A stretch of 47,148 nt of DNA, from positions 1 to 47,148 of the forward strand of contig DASYVA010000062.1 in NCBI GenBank assembly GCA_036000645.1. The letters are read 5' to 3'. The stretch's first letter is position 1; every line of letters starts with the position of its first letter. Positions 6,694-22,070 of the stretch are shown here, piece after piece. Made by a program: the position numbers and the translations under genes. The stretch is from Candidatus Methylomirabilis sp. (lineage in GTDB: Bacteria > Methylomirabilota > Methylomirabilia > Methylomirabilales > JACPAU01). The notes below the pieces were generated by a model, which saw only the letters and a list, made by a program, of their open reading frames with translations, did no database searches and was not told the DNA's origin.

Positions 6694-7656
6694 ATGCCGA
6701 CCGCCTTCCTGACCACCGAGTGCACCCCCGCCTACCTCAAGCTGGGGATCGCGGACCTGGAACGCCGGGCGGAGGAGGCGCTGGCCGGCCTCGCCTCCTG
6801 CCGGGTCTGCCCCCGAGACTGCGAGGTCAACCGGCTCGCCGACGAGGCCGCGATCTGCAAGGTCGGCCGGTACGCCAAGGTCGGCTCGGCCTTCCCCCAC
6901 TTCGGCGAGGAGGACTGCCTCAGGGGCTGGAAGGGCTCGGGGACCATCTTTTTCTCCCTGTGCAACCTCCGCTGCGTGTTCTGCCAGAACTTCGACATCA
7001 GCCAGGGGGGGGAGGGGAGCACCGCGATGCCCGAGCGCCTGGCCGCCCTGATGCTCGGGCTTCAGGACAAGGGATGCCACAACATCAACTTCGTGACGCC
7101 GGAGCACGTGGTCCCCCAGATCCTGGAGGCCCTGCCCCACGCGGTGCGGGGCGGCCTCCGCCTGCCGCTCGTGTACAACACCAGCGCCTACGATTCCCTG
7201 GAGAGCCTCCGGCACCTGGACGGGGTCGTGGACATCTACATGCCCGACTTCAAGGTCTGGGACCGGCAGGTGGCCAAGCGGTACCTGAAGGCCCCCGACT
7301 ACCCGGAGGCGGCGCGGGCGGCCGTCGGGGAGATGCACCGACAGGTCGGCCCCCTCGCCTTCGACGAGCGGGGGCTCGCCCGCCGCGGCCTCCTCGTCCG
7401 GCACCTGGTCATGCCCGGAGGGCTGGGCGGGACCCGGGAGGTCATGCGGTTCCTCGCCCGGGAGGTCTCGCGCGACACCTACGTCAACATCATGGGCCAG
7501 TACTACCCGGCCGGCCTGGTGAACGAGGAGCGCTACCCCGAGATCAACCGGCACGTCACGGCGGAAGAGCTGGCGGAGGCCCGCCGGATCGCCGCAGAGG
7601 AGGGCCTCTACCGCTTCGACGACCGCCGCCAGAGCCCCCTCCGCTGGCTCAACTGA
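6694..7656 (+). CDS. radical SAM protein, PflX family (pyruvate formate-lyase activase-like)
   Basis: CRVCPRDCEVNR...ICKVG...PHFGEEDCLRG.KGSGTIFFSLCNLRCVFCQNFDISQ carries the CxxxCxxC radical SAM motif and the PflX/COG1313 N-terminal Cys cluster. ATG 6694 is the first Met after the non-coding-looking part of the ORF. Confidence 0.85.
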   Translation: MPTAFLTTECTPAYLKLGIADLERRAEEALAGLASCRVCPRDCEVNRLADEAAICKVGRYAKVGSAFPHFGEEDCLRGWKGSGTIFFSLCNLRCVFCQNFDISQGGEGSTAMPERLAALMLGLQDKGCHNINFVTPEHVVPQILEALPHAVRGGLRLPLVYNTSAYDSLESLRHLDGVVDIYMPDFKVWDRQVAKRYLKAPDYPEAARAAVGEMHRQVGPLAFDERGLARRGLLVRHLVMPGGLGGTREVMRFLAREVSRDTYVNIMGQYYPAGLVNEERYPEINRHVTAEELAEARRIAAEEGLYRFDDRRQSPLRWLN

Positions 7657-7832
7657 TCCCCCGGATCCTCGCCCGATCTCCGGTCCCCCGCCGCCCCCGC
7701 CCGGCGGCCTTCCCGCTCCCCCGTCCCCCGCGCTATCATGCCGGAAGGGGAACCGCGCCCCGAGGGAGGGTCCCGTTGCCCAGCCGCACCGCACACCTCA
7801 CGGCCTGAGGGGAGGCCCGGAGGAGAGTCCCC

Positions 7833-8864
7833 GTGTCCGCGTCCGGCGCGCCCACCAAGGGCAGAGTCGTCTCCTTCGTGATCGCCGAGACCGATCAGAG
7901 TCTCGACGGCCCGGCCGCGGCCAGCCCCCGCGGCCTGCGCAGCGCGCCCAACTACCCGGCGTTCATCCCGGCCCTGACCGTCCTGGGGATGCGCCAGGAG
8001 ACCCTGAACGGCCGCCCGGTGGACCTCGTGGTCAAGGCGGTGCCGCCCCGCATCGTGATCGCGGAGGCGACCGCCGAGGTCGAGGACATCTTCCATGAGA
8101 CGGTGCTGGACCGGAAGAATGCCCTGCTCGCCGCGGCGCGCCGGGTCCTGGCCGAGTACCGATGTCGTCCCGACTTCGACGAGGAGTATACGGTCTACTG
8201 CGTGGCCGGCTACGGCGGCGAGGCAGATGCCTTCCTGGCCCTGCACGGCGGGACGGTGGCCGGGTTCCTCAAGAACGAGAAGATCCCCCTCGACGAGGGG
8301 ACCGTGGAGGCCACCCTCAAGAGCAGCATCAAGTACGCCCGCCACGACCTGGCCGTCGTGGACTGGGACGGGGCGTTCCTCTTCGACCCCTACGGGGACT
8401 TCGAAAGCACCATCGAGCTATTCGAGATCGCGAACCTCCAGCTCCTCCGCTGCCGGATCCTGGACTCGGCCCTCGATCAGCGGCTGGAGCGGGTCGCCGG
8501 CCTCCTGGGGGCGCCCGACCAGCGCATCCTCTTTCGGGCCCGGGAGGTGCGGGGCGTCCTCCGGGAGATCATGCGGCTGCGGTCCCAGTCCATCCTGGAG
8601 TTCCAGGGCATCGAGAAGAACATCAAGCTGATCGGGGACTGGTACTCGGCCGACCTGTACGACCTCATCGTCACCAAGTTCCACCTGCGCACCTGGCAGC
8701 GGAACGTCAAGGAGAAGCTGGACGCGCTGGAGGACATCTACACCATGACCTCGGAGAACTTCACCTTCTCCTTCTCCTCTACCGTGGACCTGGTCCAGAC
8801 GGCCGGCTGGTTCCTCCTCCTGGTCGGCTACTTCGCGCTGTTCTTCCTGGAGCTCTCCCGGTGA
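7833..8864 (+). CDS. hypothetical protein, possibly DUF155/RMD1-like, with C-terminal TM helix
   Basis: GTG 7833 follows GGAGGAGAG. The protein has a central helical region (LELFEIANLQLLRCRILDSALDQRLERV ... DWYSADLYDLIVTKFHLRTWQRNVKEKLDALEDIY) and a terminal TM helix (WFLLLVGYFALFFLEL). This architecture is reminiscent of RMD1/YagE proteins. The family call is tentative. Confidence 0.6.
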   Translation: MSASGAPTKGRVVSFVIAETDQSLDGPAAASPRGLRSAPNYPAFIPALTVLGMRQETLNGRPVDLVVKAVPPRIVIAEATAEVEDIFHETVLDRKNALLAAARRVLAEYRCRPDFDEEYTVYCVAGYGGEADAFLALHGGTVAGFLKNEKIPLDEGTVEATLKSSIKYARHDLAVVDWDGAFLFDPYGDFESTIELFEIANLQLLRCRILDSALDQRLERVAGLLGAPDQRILFRAREVRGVLREIMRLRSQSILEFQGIEKNIKLIGDWYSADLYDLIVTKFHLRTWQRNVKEKLDALEDIYTMTSENFTFSFSSTVDLVQTAGWFLLLVGYFALFFLELSR

Positions 8865-9814
8865 CCATCCTCCCCTCGGTCGCCGCCACCATCGGCCAGA
8901 CACCCCTGCTGGCTCTCGATCGCCTGGCCCGTGGCCTGCCGGGCCGGGTCCTGGCCAAGCTGGAGACCGTCAACCCCGGGGGGAGCGTGAAGGACCGGAT
9001 TGCCCTGGCCATCATCGAGGCCGCGGAGCGGGACGGGCGGCTGAAGCCGGGGGGGACCGTGGTGGAGCTCACCTCCGGGAACACCGGCATCGGCCTCGCC
9101 ATCGTCTGCGCCGTGAAGGGCTACCGCATGGTGGCGGTCATGTCGGAGGGGAACACGGTGGAGCGGCGGCGGATGCTTCAGGCGGTCGGGGCGGAGGTCG
9201 TCCTGGTGCCCCAGGTCGGCCGGCCCCGCCCGGGCCAGGTCTCGGGGGCGGACCTCGCCCGGGTGGAGGAGAAGACCCGCGAGCTGGTGAAGCGGCGCAA
9301 GGCCTTCCGCCCCGACCAGTTCCTGAACCCGGACAACGCGGCCGCCCACGAGCACGGCACCGGGCGGGAGATCTGGGAGCAGACCGGGGGCCGGCTGGAC
9401 GCCTTCTGCGCTCTGGTGGGGACCGGCGGGACCTTCGTGGGGGTGGCGCGGGCGCTCAAGGCCCGCAAGCCCGCCGTCCGTTGCTACGCGGTGGAGCCGG
9501 CGAGCGCCCCGGCCCTGGCCGGCAGACGCGTCCGGAATCCCCGCCACAAGCTCCAGGGGGGCGGCTACGCCTTCGTTCCCCCCCTCTGGGACCCGGCCTG
9601 CTGCGACGGGTTCCTCACCGCCTCGGACCCGGAGGCCCTCCGGGTGGCGCGGAGGCTCGGACGGGAGGAGGGAATCTGCGCCGGCTTCTCCTCGGGGGCC
9701 AACGTGGCCGCCGCCCTCACCCTGGCCCGGCGGGCCTCCCCGGGCGCCGTCATCGTGACCGTCATCGCCGACACCGGCCTCAAGTACCTGAGCACCGACC
9801 TCTTCCCGGCCTGA
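8861..9814 (+). CDS. cysK: cysteine synthase (O-acetylserine sulfhydrylase, PLP-dependent)
   Basis: GTG 8861 overlaps the upstream stop (GTGA). Motifs: the PLP lysine in NPGGSVKDRIAL, TSGNTGIGLA, and GTGGTF. Confidence 0.9.
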   Translation: MTILPSVAATIGQTPLLALDRLARGLPGRVLAKLETVNPGGSVKDRIALAIIEAAERDGRLKPGGTVVELTSGNTGIGLAIVCAVKGYRMVAVMSEGNTVERRRMLQAVGAEVVLVPQVGRPRPGQVSGADLARVEEKTRELVKRRKAFRPDQFLNPDNAAAHEHGTGREIWEQTGGRLDAFCALVGTGGTFVGVARALKARKPAVRCYAVEPASAPALAGRRVRNPRHKLQGGGYAFVPPLWDPACCDGFLTASDPEALRVARRLGREEGICAGFSSGANVAAALTLARRASPGAVIVTVIADTGLKYLSTDLFPA

Positions 9815-14301: not shown

Positions 14302-14511
14302 CTACGCCGGCGCCGGCCGCCGGTACTTCTCCTTCAGGTCGGCCGGGGCGATGGCGATCCGCTTGCCGCCGACATCGTCCAGGATGTAGACCTCGCCCTT
14401 GAGCGTCCCGCTGGCGAACACCTCGAACACCTCCAGGACCTCCTCCATGCTCGCCTCGGAGCGCGCCGCCATCATCTGCTCCACCTCGGGGATCGTCAGC
14501 CGCCGTCCCAT
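14302..14511 (-). CDS. small hypothetical protein (69 aa)
   Basis: ATG 14511 shares one nt with the stop of the preceding micro-ORF (TGATG) and has GGGGGAG as SD. The product is MGRRLTIPEVEQMMAARSEASMEEVLEVFEVFASGTLKGEVYILDDVGGKRIAIAPADLKEKYRRPAPA, with high GC3. Confidence 0.55.
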   Translation of the reverse strand: MGRRLTIPEVEQMMAARSEASMEEVLEVFEVFASGTLKGEVYILDDVGGKRIAIAPADLKEKYRRPAPA

Positions 14512-14690
14512 CACTCCCCCCAGGGGTTCCCCCGGTCCAGCTTCTCCTGCTGCTCCCGCAGCTCCTTCACGATGTGGTGAAGCTGCTCGGCCACATGCCC
14601 GGGGGAGCAGAGCTCCACGTAGGCCCCGATGAGCACCTCCAGGGCGCGCTGGATCCCCGATTCGTCCTCGGGATCGTAGGTGAGCTTCAT
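14511..14690 (-). CDS. small hypothetical protein (59 aa; below the ORF-track size cutoff)
   Basis: Hand translation of the minus strand gives ATG 14690 ... TGA 14511: MKLTYDPEDESGIQRALEVLIGAYVELCSPGHVAEQLHHIVKELREQQEKLDRGNPWGE. GGAG lies about 11 nt upstream and the ORF starts 12 nt after the S66 peptidase stop. GC3 is almost uniformly G/C. Confidence 0.5.
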   Translation of the reverse strand: MKLTYDPEDESGIQRALEVLIGAYVELCSPGHVAEQLHHIVKELREQQEKLDRGNPWGE

Positions 14691-14702: not shown

Positions 14703-15644
14703 TCAGTAGCCCAGGCTGAGGCGAGCCCGCCCGGCCCCCTCCGGACGGCAGTCCACCCAGCCGCCGAGAGGCAGGACCACATTGTCGCGGCGGTGTCCGG
14801 CGGGGATGGGACCGAAGCAGGGGACATCCGCGACGGCCGCGTACTCCTCCAGGATCTCCGCGAGCGGGCGGGAGGGCCGCCCCGGCGCCGGGCGGCAGCG
14901 GGTGAAGTCCCCGTAGAGCAGTCCGCGCAGCCCGCGAAGTTTCCCCGCGGCCCGGAGCTGCCAGAGCATCCGATCCACCCGGTACGGCTCCTCGTTGACG
15001 TCCTCCAGGAAGAGGACCCGCCCCGCCGTGCGGATCTCGTCCGGCGTCCCCAGCGAGCCGGCCACGAGGGTCAGGTTCCCCCCGGTCAGGCATCCTCGGA
15101 GCGGCGCTCGGCCGCGCCTGCCCCACCACCGCCCCAGCACGCCCAGGGTGTGGCGCCGGCCCGGGTGCAGGAGCAGGGCCCGGACGCTCTCCCGGGTCCG
15201 GCTGGACCGGAGGAGGCCGAAGTCGGGAGCCACCATGGGCCCGTGAAAGACCACAAGCCGGGCCCGCTGCAAGAGCGCCAGCAGGAGGATGGTGACGTCG
15301 CTCGACCCGACGAAGATCTTGGGATAGCGCCGGATGACGGCGAAGTCCAGATGCTCCAGGAGGCGACCCGCCCCGTACCCGCCCCGGGCACAGAAGATGC
15401 CCCGGACGTCCGGGTCGGTCACCATGGCCATGATGCCGGTGGCCCGCAGGGCGTCCGGCCCCGCCAGGTAGCCCCACCGCGCGTCGAGGTTCGGTGCCAG
15501 CCGCACGGCAAAAGGGCCGAGGCGCTCCAGCGCGCGCAGCCCGCGCCTGAGCGGCCCGCGCGCCGGGGGGCCCGAGGGAGCCACAACCCCCAGGGTGTCC
15601 CCCGGATGCAGGCAGGGGGGAACCCGGAGGCCCCGCTCAGCCAC
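14703..15644 (-). CDS. S66 family LD-carboxypeptidase (LdcA / MccF-like)
   Basis: Motifs: nucleophile GSSDVTILL, FLEDVNEEPYRVDRML, and GH...LPLG. The start is set at GTG 15644 (VAERGLRV..GDTLGVVAPSG) to give about 313 aa and avoid overlap with the upstream gene. The start is uncertain. Confidence 0.85.
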   Translation of the reverse strand: MAERGLRVPPCLHPGDTLGVVAPSGPPARGPLRRGLRALERLGPFAVRLAPNLDARWGYLAGPDALRATGIMAMVTDPDVRGIFCARGGYGAGRLLEHLDFAVIRRYPKIFVGSSDVTILLLALLQRARLVVFHGPMVAPDFGLLRSSRTRESVRALLLHPGRRHTLGVLGRWWGRRGRAPLRGCLTGGNLTLVAGSLGTPDEIRTAGRVLFLEDVNEEPYRVDRMLWQLRAAGKLRGLRGLLYGDFTRCRPAPGRPSRPLAEILEEYAAVADVPCFGPIPAGHRRDNVVLPLGGWVDCRPEGAGRARLSLGY

Positions 15645-15739
15645 GGCCCGATCTCGCGCGGCCGCCCCGGTTTTTCGTCGCCACGCCCCTCGCTGCCGGC
15701 ATCGCCAGGCCGCCACGTTACCAGCGGAGGTCAGCGGGG

Positions 15740-16543
15740 TCAAGCCCCTCCGCTCCCCGAGCGGAGGGTGAAGGTCAAGCCCCGCTCCGGGGCGCGGGTC
15801 CACGCGGCGTGAAGCGCCGCCGGATCGGGAAGCCGGGTCGCGGGGAGCAGGCGTCCGGTGACCGAGAAGCGACCCGGGGCCTCGGTGAAGGGATAAGGCC
15901 TGAGCAAGGCACCTCCCGCCTCCGGCGTGAACTCGAGATCGGTCCGCCGCAGCCCCTCACCGAGCGGGACTGCGGTGAAGGTCTGGGCCTCCGTGGCGCC
16001 GCAACAGAGCAGGAGGGAGAGCGCGTCCAGGAACTGCAGGAGGCGGAAGTTGGTCGTCAGGCGGGCCCTGGCGACCGCCTCCCGGTACCGGGAGCGCGTC
16101 GCGAGGCCCTCCCGCAGGGCCGCCTGCAGGCGCTCCTGCTCCGCGAGGAACGTCCGGACGGCGGCCCGATCCGCCTCCGGCGTGCGGGCCGCCTTCTCGA
16201 GTCGGAAGCGCATCAGGGCGGCGCCGTGCATGCTGACCAGGAGCCCCGCGTAGGGGTTCCGTTCCAGCATCCGCTGCACCCCGCGCCGCCAGATGACCAG
16301 ATGGTCCGCGACCGACATCTCGGTGAAGTGGACCGGGCAGCCGGCTGCCGGGTCGAGGCCCGGGGCCGCCTCCCACTCCGCCCAGCCGTTGTCGTGCTCG
16401 GCCACCGCCTGGAGGACCTCGGTCCTCGGCTCCGGAGGAAGAAAGGGGGTCCGTCCCCAGGCCTCGGCCATCGCGCCGGCGAGACGGGCATGCTCGGGCT
16501 GGCCGATGCAGAGCCAGTACGAATTCAGCGCGCGGCGGATCAT
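15740..16543 (-). CDS. DUF3891 family protein
   Basis: The N-terminus ...IGQPEHARLAGAMAEAW...AVAEHDNGW matches my recollection of the DUF3891 signature (Q..HA.lsg.lA..W ... HD.GW). It has an ATGA overlap with the MaoC gene. Confidence 0.65.
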   Translation of the reverse strand: MIRRALNSYWLCIGQPEHARLAGAMAEAWGRTPFLPPEPRTEVLQAVAEHDNGWAEWEAAPGLDPAAGCPVHFTEMSVADHLVIWRRGVQRMLERNPYAGLLVSMHGAALMRFRLEKAARTPEADRAAVRTFLAEQERLQAALREGLATRSRYREAVARARLTTNFRLLQFLDALSLLLCCGATEAQTFTAVPLGEGLRRTDLEFTPEAGGALLRPYPFTEAPGRFSVTGRLLPATRLPDPAALHAAWTRAPERGLTFTLRSGSGGA

Positions 16544-17007
16544 CCCGCCTCCGGCGGCGCGGGTGGCAAGGGCGCGGGCGGCGCGGGGCGGCGCGGCGGC
16601 ACCACCGTGGCCCCACCCCGCAGGACCACATCCCCCCGTTGATTCACCCCGACCACGTCCAGGGTGATCCAGTGGCGCCCCGGGTCCTTGGCGACCACGG
16701 TCCCCGTCAGCGTCACCGTATCGGCGAAGAAGACGGGGGCGACGTACTCGATGCTGAACCCGGCCCCGATGGTCCCAGGACCGGGCAGGCAGGTGCCGGC
16801 GAGCGTCGGAATCATGCTCGCGGTCAGGACCCCGTGGACGATCCGCCGGCCGAAGTGGGTCGTCCGGCAGTAGGCCTCGTCCAGGTGGAGGGGATTGGCG
16901 TCCCCGATCAGGCGGGCGCAGCGGGCCGTCTCCTGTTCCGTCCAGGTCCGGACGAGGGTGGCGCGGTCTCCCAGGCGGATCTCGTCAAACGTGCGCGATG
17001 GCTCCAC
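16540..17007 (-). CDS. MaoC-like (R)-specific enoyl-CoA hydratase / hot-dog dehydratase
   Basis: GDANPLHLDEAYC..THFGRRIVHGVL is the hydratase 2 motif. The C-terminal tail is Pro-rich. Confidence 0.85.
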   Translation of the reverse strand: MEPSRTFDEIRLGDRATLVRTWTEQETARCARLIGDANPLHLDEAYCRTTHFGRRIVHGVLTASMIPTLAGTCLPGPGTIGAGFSIEYVAPVFFADTVTLTGTVVAKDPGRHWITLDVVGVNQRGDVVLRGGATVVPPRRPAPPAPLPPAPPEAG

Positions 17008-17041: not shown

Positions 17042-17070
17042 TTGAACCTACCGGACCAAGCGCGTAGAAT
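17042..17070 (+). promoter_or_regulatory. promoter of the Memo-family gene
   Basis: TTGAAC (17042-17047), 17 nt spacer, TAGAAT (17065-17070), 23 nt upstream of ATG 17094, in an 86-nt divergent intergenic region. Confidence 0.55.
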
Positions 17071-17093
17071 GCAACCGGTCCACCGGAGTGCCC

Positions 17094-18314
17094 ATGGAGA
17101 GACCGCGGCTCCGCCCGATCGACGCCTTCCCCACCGAGGTGGACGGGACCCCGGCCCTGTGCCTGCGGGACCCGCAGGGCCTCACCGACCGGGTCCTCTT
17201 CCTCCCCCTGGCGGCCGTCGAGATCCTCCAGCATCTGGACGGGACCCACAGCATCCTGGACATCCAGGCCGCTTGGGTCCGGCGGCACGGGGATTTCCTC
17301 TTCCGGGAGCAGGTGGAGGAGCTCCTCGCGCTCCTGGACGAGCACCTGCTCCTGGATACCCCGCGCGCGGCCGCCGCCCGCGAGGCCGCGGAGCGGGAGT
17401 TCAGCGCCGCCCCCGTGCGCCCCGCCTTTCACGCCGGCCGCGCCTACGACGCCGACCCGGCCCGCCTCCGGGCGACCCTCGACAGCTTCTTCACGAGCCC
17501 CGAGGGCCCGGGGGTGCCGGGGCCCCCGCGCGGGACGAGGCTGCAGGCGGTGCTCGCCCCCCACATCGACTTCGCCCGGGGGGGCCCCACATACGCCTGG
17601 GCCTACCGGGCGGTCGTGGAGGCCGCGGAGGCGGACACCTTCATCGTGCTGGGGACGGCCCACTCGCCCCTCGGAGGCCGCTTCTCTCCCGGCCGGAAGG
17701 ACTTCGCCACGCCCTTCGGGCCCCTCGAGACCGACCGGGGGTTCGTCGACCGGCTGGTCGCGCGCACCGGGGGGGACGGCATCGTGCTGGATGACTTCGT
17801 CCACCGAGCGGAGCACTCCATCGACTTCCAGGCGGTCTTCCTCCAGTACCTGTACGCGGGAAGGCGACCGATCCGTCTGGTCCCGATTCTGTGCGGGACC
17901 CTCTCGGACTTCGTCCTGACGGGGATGTCCCCGGCGGATGACCCGGTGGTTCGCCGCTTCGTGACGGCCCTGCAGGAGACCATCGGAACGGCGAAAGGGC
18001 GGATGTGTCTGGTGGGAGGGGTGGACCTGGCCCACCTCGGGCCCCGCTTCGGGGACCCGAAGCCCCTCACGGCCGCGCACCTCCGGCGGGCAGCCCAGGA
18101 CGACGCGGCGATGCTGCAAGCGGTCACGGCCGGAGATGCGGAGGGATTCTTCTGCTTCGTCCAGCAGGAGCGGGACCGTCGGCGGATCTGCGGCCTCTCC
18201 CCCATCTACATCCTGCTGAAAGTCCTGGAGGGGGCGAAGGGCACACTCCTCCGCTACAGCCAGTGGCCGGACCCGCAGGGAACAGTGACCTTCGCCGGCC
18301 TGACCTTCCCGTGA
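17094..18314 (+). CDS. Memo-family protein (AmmeMemoRadiSam system protein B-like) with ~105-aa N-terminal PqqD/RRE-like extension
   Basis: ATG 17094 lies 5 nt after GGAG; a GTG at 17088 is also possible. The Memo core runs from VRPAFHAGRAYDADP..L onward, with APHIDF, AEHSIDFQ, VDLAHLG and ICGLSP. The N-terminal extension is described in the findings. Confidence 0.85.
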   Translation: MERPRLRPIDAFPTEVDGTPALCLRDPQGLTDRVLFLPLAAVEILQHLDGTHSILDIQAAWVRRHGDFLFREQVEELLALLDEHLLLDTPRAAAAREAAEREFSAAPVRPAFHAGRAYDADPARLRATLDSFFTSPEGPGVPGPPRGTRLQAVLAPHIDFARGGPTYAWAYRAVVEAAEADTFIVLGTAHSPLGGRFSPGRKDFATPFGPLETDRGFVDRLVARTGGDGIVLDDFVHRAEHSIDFQAVFLQYLYAGRRPIRLVPILCGTLSDFVLTGMSPADDPVVRRFVTALQETIGTAKGRMCLVGGVDLAHLGPRFGDPKPLTAAHLRRAAQDDAAMLQAVTAGDAEGFFCFVQQERDRRRICGLSPIYILLKVLEGAKGTLLRYSQWPDPQGTVTFAGLTFP

Positions 18315-18386: not shown

Positions 18387-18692
18387 TCAGAACCGGCCGC
18401 CCCGCTCGGGGCCTCGGCCGGGCGGCCCGACCCCGCGGTCCCGCTCGGGAGGCCGGGCCTCGTTGACGACGAGCTGGCGGCTCTTCAGGGCATGCCCGTT
18501 GAACAGGGAGATGGCCTTCTGCGCCTCCTCGTCCGTGGCCATCTCCACGAAGCCGAAGCCCCGCGACTGGCCGGTGTAGGCGTCGGTGATGATCTTCACC
18601 GAGGCGACTGAGCCCGCCTGGGCGAACAGATCGCGCAGATCGGCCTCCGTTGCCTGGTAGGACAGGTTCCCCACGTACAGTCTCCGTGCCAT
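18387..18692 (-). CDS. RRM-type RNA-binding protein with Arg/Gly-rich tail
   Basis: RNP2 LYVGNL and RNP1 RGFGFVEM are present. Length is 101 aa. SD GGGAGGAG lies upstream. Confidence 0.95.
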   Translation of the reverse strand: MARRLYVGNLSYQATEADLRDLFAQAGSVASVKIITDAYTGQSRGFGFVEMATDEEAQKAISLFNGHALKSRQLVVNEARPPERDRGVGPPGRGPERGGRF

Positions 18693-20769: not shown

Positions 20770-21432
20770 TCAGTTCCAGCGGCCGCCCTCCGCGGCGCAG
20801 TCGCCCCCGCCGTAACGCGCCAGCAGCGCCTCCGAGACCGCCGCCGTCACCAGGCCCAGGCGGTCCCCCAGGTCCAGGGTCTCCAGGATCCGCTGACGCT
20901 GGGCGGCCCCCACGACGACCACGGAGGCCACCCGGTCAATCAGCGCCGCGGGGCTGGGCGCCTCCGTCGCCAACCGGCTGAGCGCCCGCTCGCCCCGCCC
21001 GACCTCCCTCAGCAGACGCAGGTACGAAGCCGTGAGGGCCTCGAGGCCCCGCTGGATTGGGGCGGACCCGGCGTCGGGGAGCCGGTCCTCCAGCACGCGG
21101 CAACGGACCAGCCGATAGGCGCCGGGAGCGGGGAGCTCCTCCTCGATGAGGACCCGGGCGAACCCCTCCAGGAGGATATTGGACCTCCCGTCCGGCAGCC
21201 GCTCCGCCTCCACCACCTGCCCCGCCCCGGCCACGGTGTGGATCGGCGGCCGCCCGGAGTATTCCCGCTCCCACCCCGGCAGGAGCCTCACCACCACCAT
21301 CCGCTTCTCCCCCGCCAGACAGTCGGCCAGCATGGCCCGGTAGCGCGGCTCGAAGACGTGGAGCGGCAGGAGCGTATGGGGGAACAAAACCGTCTCGGGG
21401 AGGGGAAACAGCGGGAGGGTGAGCGGGGCCAC
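20770..21432 (-). CDS. stand-alone LON substrate-binding (Lon N-terminal) domain protein
   Basis: GTG 21432 is preceded by GAGGAG. LPLFPLPETVLFPHTLLPLHVFEPRYRAM is the classic Lon-N start. No AAA+ or protease domain follows. Confidence 0.8.
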   Translation of the reverse strand: MAPLTLPLFPLPETVLFPHTLLPLHVFEPRYRAMLADCLAGEKRMVVVRLLPGWEREYSGRPPIHTVAGAGQVVEAERLPDGRSNILLEGFARVLIEEELPAPGAYRLVRCRVLEDRLPDAGSAPIQRGLEALTASYLRLLREVGRGERALSRLATEAPSPAALIDRVASVVVVGAAQRQRILETLDLGDRLGLVTAAVSEALLARYGGGDCAAEGGRWN

Positions 21433-21440
21433 GCGACTCC

Positions 21441-22070
21441 TCAGCGGCGGAGACTCAGCCCCACGCCGTCCCGGAGGGGGAGGATGACGGTGAGGAGCTC
21501 GGGCGAAGCGTAGAGCAGGCGCGTGTACTCCTGCACGGCCCGGGTGCTGGGGGCGGGCGGCTCCTCCGTGGCCACTCGCCCGGACCACAGGAGGTTGTCG
21601 GTGATGAGCAGGCCGCCCGGCCGAAGCCGGGGCAGGAGCTTGGGGAAGGCGGGCGGGTACTGCTCCTTGTCTATATCATTGAAGATGAGGTCGAAGGGGC
21701 CCGGCGTCCGGTCGAGAAGCGCCAGGGCATCGCCCACTTCGAAGCGGACCCGGTCCGCGATCTCCGCCCGCCGGAAGACCTCGGCCGCAATCGCCGCGTT
21801 CTCCGCCGAGCCGTCCACGCAGAGCAGGGTGCCGTCCCGTTCCATTCCCCGCGCCAGCCAGAGCGCCGAGTAGCCGAACCCCGAGCCCACCTCCAGGATC
21901 CGGCGCGCCCGGACGAGCTGCGCGCACAGCTCGAGCAAGCGGCCGACCAGGGGCCCCACGATGGGAAACCCGCGCTCCGCCGCGGACGCCTCCAGCTCCC
22001 CGAACAGGGGATCGGGGCCCGCCGGCAGGCCCTGCAGGTACGCCTCGACGAGGGGAGGGAGGAGGGTCAG
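21441..22070 (-). CDS. class I SAM-dependent O-methyltransferase (caffeoyl-CoA OMT / YrrM-like); start codon unresolved
   Basis: Motifs: ILEVGSGFGYSALWLA, FDLIFNDIDK, GGLLITDNLLW. The only in-frame ATG/GTG/TTG upstream of the conserved N-terminus is GTG 22178, which would add about 36 Arg/Gly-rich residues and a 112-nt overlap. CTG 22070 overlaps the upstream stop (CTGA). Confidence 0.8.
   Translation of the reverse strand: MTLLPPLVEAYLQGLPAGPDPLFGELEASAAERGFPIVGPLVGRLLELCAQLVRARRILEVGSGFGYSALWLARGMERDGTLLCVDGSAENAAIAAEVFRRAEIADRVRFEVGDALALLDRTPGPFDLIFNDIDKEQYPPAFPKLLPRLRPGGLLITDNLLWSGRVATEEPPAPSTRAVQEYTRLLYASPELLTVILPLRDGVGLSLRR

Follow-up and report, generated by a model that had tools for sequence, protein, structure and literature searches.

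A widespread Memo-family paralog with an N-terminal RRE-like domain, represented by a gene of Candidatus Methylomirabilis

The biochemical role of Memo, and of the triad formed by AMMECR1, Memo and a radical S-adenosylmethionine (SAM) enzyme, is a long-standing puzzle in bacteria, archaea and humans, and the literature mentions of "AmmeMemoRadiSam" that we found are in passing only. The closest described relatives of the gene considered here were listed by Bregman et al. (2025, mSystems; PMC12710340), who place fusions of Memo to a RiPP recognition element (RRE; RiPP, ribosomally synthesised and post-translationally modified peptide) among their high-confidence RREs. The corresponding hidden Markov model (HMM), RREFam044 "Memo_RRE", yields 72% true positives at a 20-bit cut-off and has been in RRE-Finder since November 2025; the paper states no substrate, gene context, taxonomy or distribution for it (PMC12710340). 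Here we describe one such gene in a 47,148-nucleotide stretch of Candidatus Methylomirabilis sp. (assembly GCA_036000645.1, contig DASYVA010000062.1, positions 1 to 47,148; hereafter the window), whose product joins an N-terminal domain of RRE fold to the Pfam Memo domain PF01875. By this architecture, which shows no difference in kind from RREFam044, the protein very probably belongs to that family. The RRE-Memo fusion itself, catalogued in 2025, is therefore not new, and the window copy adds little alone because of that prior listing. For the same reason a first-pass annotation of this DNA, which spoke of a possibly undescribed modification system, is dated, since RRE-Finder has held a model of the fusion since late 2025. 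New here are its genomic setting and its relationship to protein B of the AmmeMemoRadiSam system: we found no neighbour that the whole family shares and no precursor close by, two small open reading frames (ORFs) of 59 and 69 aa are confined to close relatives, the gene adjoins a Memo and AMMECR1 pair in one clade, and the RRE-Memo form is a paralog of protein B. Its moderate interest rests on the puzzle of Memo and AMMECR1 function rather than on the window locus.

The Memo domain was readily assigned. Its core had been expected from about residue 108, and VRPAFHAG does begin at that residue; PF01875 passes its gathering threshold with 127.7 bits (cut-off 27; E 6.4e-37) over residues 113-395 of the 408-aa frame. 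TIGR04336, the model for AmmeMemoRadiSam system protein B, is also passed (101.1 bits, cut-off 26), and homologues carry that name in databases. In Foldseek, the full-length AlphaFold2 (AF2) model matches human MEMO1 (7kq8) with E 2.7e-17 and a template modelling (TM) score of 0.81 by target length, and the next matches after the MEMO1 structures are LigB-type extradiol dioxygenases. MEMO1 (3bcz, 7kq8, 7l5c) thus shares the fold of the catalytic domain, but it lacks the N-terminal RRE-like domain and is only about 20% identical to the window protein. In a set of 26 sequences whose identity to the window protein is 33-86%, the residues H157, H190, E240/H241, D311, H314 and C366 are invariant, in keeping with the conserved His/Asp/Cys of protein B. 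The APH and ICG motifs align with MEMO1 in phmmer, and we take D311 and H314 to be the counterparts of MEMO1 Asp189 and His192. On the evidence of the sequence, the invariant His/His/Asp/His/Cys site positions are intact.

In front of this domain lies a 108-residue region that a canonical protein B does not have. The figure of about 270 aa previously given for a typical protein B agrees with the Memo-only models (270 positions in TIGR04336 and 269 in PF01875) and with canonical Memo genes at two of the loci described below (279 aa at L033, 275 aa at L093), and hhalign found no counterpart of the N-terminal profile in a canonical short Memo (probability 0.2%). The translation of 17094-17410 reads MERPRLRPIDAFPTEVDG...EREFSA. 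The AF2 model of this region (mean predicted local distance difference test, pLDDT, 94.9; predicted TM score, pTM, 0.84) places strands at residues 10-16, 19-25 and 34-38 and helices at 41-45, 54-65 and 71-83, and the full-length model repeats the same order of elements. Residues 1-88 thereby show the three strands followed by three helices of the structural definition of an RRE (PMC12710340), an order that had also been read from the sequence in the first-pass annotation; both models add a helix at residues 90-105 that was not listed there. The pTM of 0.90 for the full-length model suggests that the RRE-like and Memo domains are held in a fixed mutual arrangement.

Structural comparison leans towards the same fold class, with no match at E<=1e-3. 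Four RRE-bearing RiPP enzymes (TruD, TbiB1, ThcOx and TglHI) are found within the top 18 of 350,542 Protein Data Bank (PDB) chains when the N-terminal domain is used as a Foldseek query; TruD is matched with E 0.03 and a probability of 0.98, TbiB1 with its leader peptide with E 0.29 and a TM score of 0.61 by target length, and TM scores by query length are about 0.5 for the top matches. The domain has the same order of three strands and three helices over about 85 residues as PqqD and other RREs (TbiB1 and the RRE domains of TruD/LynD, PaaA and ThcOx), with weak in-register sequence matches over the helical part, all of which score below the family cut-offs. For the window protein, the PqqD model TIGR03859 gives 15.3 bits (cut-off 46; E 0.014), Pfam gives no match at E<=10 to the N-terminal 108 aa, and the best PDB profile match is to PaaA (chain residues 40-94), below threshold. 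Within a set of 66 N-terminal sequences, individual members weakly match PqqD (11/66), PaaA-like_N (7/66) and HTH_47 (8/66), and the best E for PF05402 is 0.0014, short of the cut-off. A profile of all 66 brought no gain against the PDB: its top matches are PKMT2 (E 0.048) and noise from EF-hand troponin C, with PaaA now at E 0.29. The domain is PqqD-like in fold and lies outside the scored PqqD family, because no PqqD model reaches its cut-off. What had been proposed as a PqqD/RRE-like domain thus stands as regards fold, best structural matches and the published RRE-Memo class, and falls short as regards PqqD sequence models.

Foldseek also returned two protein lysine methyltransferases, PKMT2 of Rickettsia (5doo/5dpl) and Rv2067c of M. 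tuberculosis (8hkr), and residues 458-495 of PKMT2 are those weakly matched by the N-terminal sequence profile. Should these regions prove RRE-like, they would set a precedent for domains of this kind in enzymes whose targets are full-size proteins and not RiPPs.

Pfam also matches winged-helix families weakly (HTH_47, DUF4423_like and MCM_C), which raises the alternative that the N-terminal domain binds nucleic acid as a winged helix and that the protein is a regulator or enzyme associated with DNA or RNA. HTH_47 is itself permuted and does not bind DNA: it was defined on a winged helix-turn-helix (wHTH) that is circularly permuted, for which its authors proposed peptide recognition (PMC4000134). 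The N-terminal domain is moreover acidic throughout the family, with a median isoelectric point (pI) of 4.68 and a net negative charge in 99% of 259 domains. Because the domain is acidic and its topology permuted, nucleic-acid binding is disfavoured, and we regard it as very improbable.

The extension is well conserved among homologues, a point on which its assignment as a domain had been made to depend. The 120 best homologues each align over 96-100% of the query. Among 25 N-terminal sequences, 42-77% identical to the window protein, 13 positions are invariant, those within residues 1-88 being P4, L6, R7, L24, R25, D26, P27, G50, Q58, G66, L81 and D82; a further 10 positions are conserved at 90% or more in the 66-sequence set. 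A profile of the extension, searched against 1.84 billion representatives clustered at 50% identity, recovered 1,933 clusters at E<=1e-3 and 1,105 at E<=1e-10. Sequence conservation of this kind marks the extension as a genuine conserved domain and not a chance lengthening of the ORF. In the best 150 of the 1,933 clusters the domain occurs only with Memo, either in fusions of about 400-440 aa or in truncated or frameshifted fragments. Two seeming exceptions were set aside: P0137 (986 aa) carries the RRE-like domain and the first ~25 Memo residues followed by unrelated tetratricopeptide repeat (TPR) sequence, probably a chimera created in assembly, and P0264 (689 aa) is an artefact that ends in junk sequence.

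The survey of the ~400-aa form that the first-pass annotation had called for found the RRE-Memo protein in species genomes of about ten phyla, at least 597 of them (full-length alignment, one genome per species). In the best 80 of these genomes, all metagenome-assembled genomes (MAGs), coverage is near end to end, the first matched residue being 1-4 and the last 399-406. Their labels comprise Methylomirabilota/Rokubacteria, Brocadiales/Scalindua and other Planctomycetota, Nitrospinota, Acidobacteriota, Poribacteria, Abyssobacteria, Sumerlaeota, Dormibacterota, and Syntrophia and Thermodesulfobacteriota-type lineages.

Although homologues are named protein B, the RRE-Memo form is a second, paralogous Memo and not AmmeMemoRadiSam protein B itself, since in one Thermodesulfobacteriota clade a canonical short Memo lies directly upstream of it in the same operons. 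A search for the hallmark motif of AMMECR1 matched only locus L033, where a short Memo (279 aa), AMMECR1 (218 aa) and RRE-Memo follow one another. Five further RRE-Memo proteins of this clade are 53-65% identical to the L033 protein, and in all six distinct cases the RRE-Memo gene lies 13-150 bp downstream, on the same strand, of canonical Memo and AMMECR1 (Table 1). At L033 and L093 the two have a gene each; L091/92, L094, L095/96 and L098 carry them as a fusion. The two Memo types also differ in score, with 128 bits to the Pfam model for the window protein against 229 bits for the canonical L033 copy. Here RRE-Memo coexists with a canonical Memo and is not the single Memo component that protein B represents. 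FtsY is usually upstream in this clade and is absent there in L094, the genes downstream vary, the 7 kb around contain no radical SAM gene, and in a relative (L097, 48% identical) RRE-Memo stands alone. RRE-Memo is probably co-transcribed with canonical Memo and AMMECR1 in this clade, a hint of a shared pathway.

The window itself, unlike the protein B system, has neither AMMECR1 nor a dedicated radical SAM gene. No LRGCIG-type AMMECR1 motif occurs in any frame of the 47 kb, and a single ORF (6694-7653) looks radical-SAM-like: it reaches 26.5 bits with TIGR04337, whose cut-off is 220, and belongs to an unrelated operon 9.4 kb away. The first-pass statement that these partners are absent accordingly applies to the window and does not extend to the Thermodesulfobacteriota clade. 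The ORF at 6694-7653 encodes a divergent radical SAM protein (PF04055 29.3 bits, just below 29.5) whose best NCBIfam match is the local 26.5-bit one to the AmmeMemoRadiSam radical SAM model. It begins an apparent three-gene operon (6694-9814, plus strand) with a protein labelled MJ0711_N (7833-8864) and a pyridoxal-phosphate (PLP)-dependent PALP enzyme; the MJ0711_N label comes from the precomputed annotation of the near-identical locus L087.

Gene context was surveyed by ORF clustering over 81 loci together with about ten distinct Pfam-annotated contexts, the clustering being noisy with shadow ORFs at high-GC loci. Synteny is lineage-specific. In at least 22 of 71 loci, from Rokubacteria and part of the Methylomirabilota, an M20 peptidase gene upstream ends within about 0-26 bp of the RRE-Memo start, with a 105-aa protein further upstream and a DUF1285-like protein downstream of RRE-Memo. 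Syntrophia-type lineages have a Lon protease gene 65-236 bp upstream in 8 loci (Table 1) and YjbQ/UPF0047 downstream. The clade of the window shows the order MaoC, RRE-Memo, RNA recognition motif (RRM) protein, and tblastn of the window found no match (E<=1e-3) to the 105-aa protein, the DUF1285-like protein, the M20 peptidase or YjbQ. No RiPP tailoring, protease or transporter gene and no precursor-peptide gene is found near the window RRE-Memo. A further difference from known RRE enzymes is that the domain is fused to an enzyme class without RiPP precedent.

Another reading is a local RiPP-like system with the products of the 59- and 69-aa ORFs, 2.4 kb upstream of the Memo gene, as precursors; binding of these products to the domain had been put forward for testing. 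Both ORFs are called genes and recur with 78-100% identity, at a similar distance from the Memo gene, in five close-relative Methylomirabilota loci. However, tblastn gave no match to either in the other 85 loci searched (78 with distinct RRE-Memo genes), they lie on the strand opposite to the Memo gene in an operon with LD-carboxypeptidase and short-chain dehydrogenase/reductase (SDR) genes, the DUF3891 and MaoC genes stand between, and the Memo gene appears to have a promoter of its own. Confined as they are to close relatives, the two ORFs provide no evidence for a cis-encoded precursor; this lack of co-occurrence largely refutes the proposal, to which we assign only a very slight chance.

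The gene product is best explained as a stand-alone two-domain enzyme. We propose that the RRE-like domain holds on to a segment, extended and probably basic, of a peptide or protein whose gene lies elsewhere, and brings this segment into place for a metal-dependent reaction at the Memo centre, a reading to which we give a probability of about 0.5. By analogy with other RREs, the domain would capture part of a peptide or protein tail in extended form, as an added strand beside beta-3 in the groove between beta-3 and alpha-3. The partner would probably be basic, because the domain of the window protein has a net charge of about -6. Residues next to the captured stretch would then be presented to the Memo metal centre for modification. 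With a target encoded elsewhere in the genome, the enzyme would act in trans, outside a compact RiPP gene cluster, and in at least one clade it would probably work in the same pathway as canonical Memo and AMMECR1.

Several observations weigh against this proposal. Peptide binding by the domain is inferred from its predicted fold, for which no Foldseek match in the PDB reaches E<=1e-3 and no PqqD or other RRE sequence model tested reaches its curated cut-off; the comparison with PF05402 and RRE structures that had been recommended thus returned RRE-bearing proteins at the top, below significance. No neighbour is conserved across the 81 loci, the neighbours in the ten or so Pfam-annotated contexts are housekeeping genes, and no candidate substrate gene travels with RRE-Memo; nor was a small ORF visibly common to the intergenic gaps around the Thermodesulfobacteriota operons, as judged by eye without alignment. 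Adjacency to Memo and AMMECR1 is confined to one clade and may partly be inherited gene order, because the upstream FtsY is mostly retained. Memo/AMMECR1/radical SAM systems have, furthermore, reportedly been linked to the modification of nucleotide bases or isoprenoids and not of peptides.

That reported link also favours an alternative in which the RRE-like domain serves for protein-protein docking or for regulation, tethering the enzyme to a partner such as AMMECR1/Memo, a radical SAM enzyme or a peptidase, or gating its active site, while the substrate of the Memo domain is a small molecule, for example a nucleotide base or an isoprenoid. PqqD, too, docks onto its radical SAM partner PqqE. 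Such a role would fit the lack of a cis-encoded peptide in the lineages surveyed, the predicted fixed position of the domain on Memo, the Memo and AMMECR1 neighbours in one clade, the tight coupling to the upstream M20 peptidase gene in at least 22 of 71 loci, and the Lon gene found upstream in 8. Set against it, human MEMO1 is said to bind a peptide in its active-site cleft. The candidate partners vary by lineage, yet the domain is near-invariant at 10-13 positions, which suggests a common ligand. Every characterised RRE, finally, binds peptide (background in PMC12710340). On balance a docking or regulatory role, the strongest of the rival readings, is possible but doubtful.

A Memo paralog with a domain of the kind that elsewhere grips substrate peptides offers a concrete experimental handle, since the domain can serve as bait for its ligand. 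The search is narrowed by a ligand that is not encoded next door and is probably basic, and by the one-clade operon link to Memo and AMMECR1. By analogy with PqqD, which passes PqqA on to the radical SAM enzyme PqqE, RRE-Memo could be a widespread, trans-acting housekeeping enzyme that delivers a peptide or protein tail to the AMMECR1-Memo-radical SAM machinery. We consider this extension speculative and rather unlikely. Were it true, a conserved system with human disease-linked homologues (MEMO1, AMMECR1) would modify proteins and not small molecules.

Table 1. Coordinates of the RRE-Memo gene, its domains and other features (window positions unless a locus is named).
Feature	Position	Strand	Basis or remark
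RRE-Memo coding sequence	17094..18314	+	406 aa, stop codon within; 406-aa homologues begin MERPRL; full-length AF2 model pLDDT 93.8, pTM 0.90
RRE-like domain (PqqD-like, circularly permuted wHTH), residues 1-88	17094..17357	+	AF2, Foldseek, weak PqqD/PaaA/HTH_47 matches, invariant positions
Linker helix between RRE-like and Memo domains, residues 90-105	17361..17408	+	present in both AF2 models
Memo (LigB-superfamily) domain, residues 109-406	17418..18311	+	PF01875 score, Foldseek to MEMO1, invariant columns, phmmer alignment to MEMO1
Memo-site codon H157	17562-17564	+	
Memo-site codon H190	17661-17663	+	
Memo-site codon D311	18024-18026	+	
Memo-site codon H314	18033-18035	+	
Memo-site codon C366	18189-18191	+	
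GGAG Shine-Dalgarno-like motif	17083..17086	+	7 nt upstream of ATG 17094; read from sequence
Sigma-70-like promoter candidate TTGAAC-17-TAGAAT	17042..17070	+	in 86-bp gap between divergent MaoC gene and Memo gene; consensus match only
MaoC-like dehydratase gene	16540-17007	-	155 aa; divergent from Memo gene
RRM RNA-binding protein gene	18387-18692	-	convergent with Memo gene
59-aa gene	14511-14690	-	no Pfam match
69-aa gene	14302-14510	-	no Pfam match
Loci with Memo and AMMECR1 followed by RRE-Memo			L033, L091/92, L093, L094, L095/96, L098
Memo-AMMECR1 fused gene, L091	5531-6961		474-476 aa across the four loci
Memo-AMMECR1 fused gene, L094	5426-6850		as above
Memo-AMMECR1 fused gene, L095	5487-6917		as above
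Memo-AMMECR1 fused gene, L098	5476-6906		as above
Loci with full-length Lon, Syntrophia/Desulfobacterota-type			L053, L056, L059, L061, L063, L065, L068, L070

The nearest relatives of the window protein come from Methylomirabilota/NC10 MAGs, and the G+C content of the window is about 72%. The ORF lister had begun the frame at GTG 17088, giving 408 aa. ATG 17094 is the likely start, since the closest homologues are 406 aa long with MERPRL at the N-terminus, a GGAG motif stands 7 nt upstream and a sigma-70-like site precedes it. The sigma-70-like site was observed once against 0.0 expected in shuffles. Flanked by the divergent MaoC and the convergent RRM genes, RRE-Memo for this reason looks monocistronic in the window.

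Some features of the surroundings may be added. In the Rokubacteria and Methylomirabilota loci noted above, the M20 peptidase gene abuts or overlaps the RRE-Memo start. The presence of two unrelated peptidases, Lon and M20, upstream of RRE-Memo in different phyla may be coincidence or may hint at a protein-level function. In the window, 2.4 kb downstream of the Memo gene, there is a gene (20770-21588, minus strand) for a Lon N-terminal (substrate-binding) domain that stands alone. The coding regions of the 59- and 69-aa genes overlap by a few bases just downstream of the LD-carboxypeptidase gene (within ORF 14703-15803). Between these and the Memo gene, DUF3891 (267 aa) and the MaoC-like dehydratase (15740-17007, minus strand) overlap by 4 bp and are divergent from Memo; the pair is kept only in close relatives.

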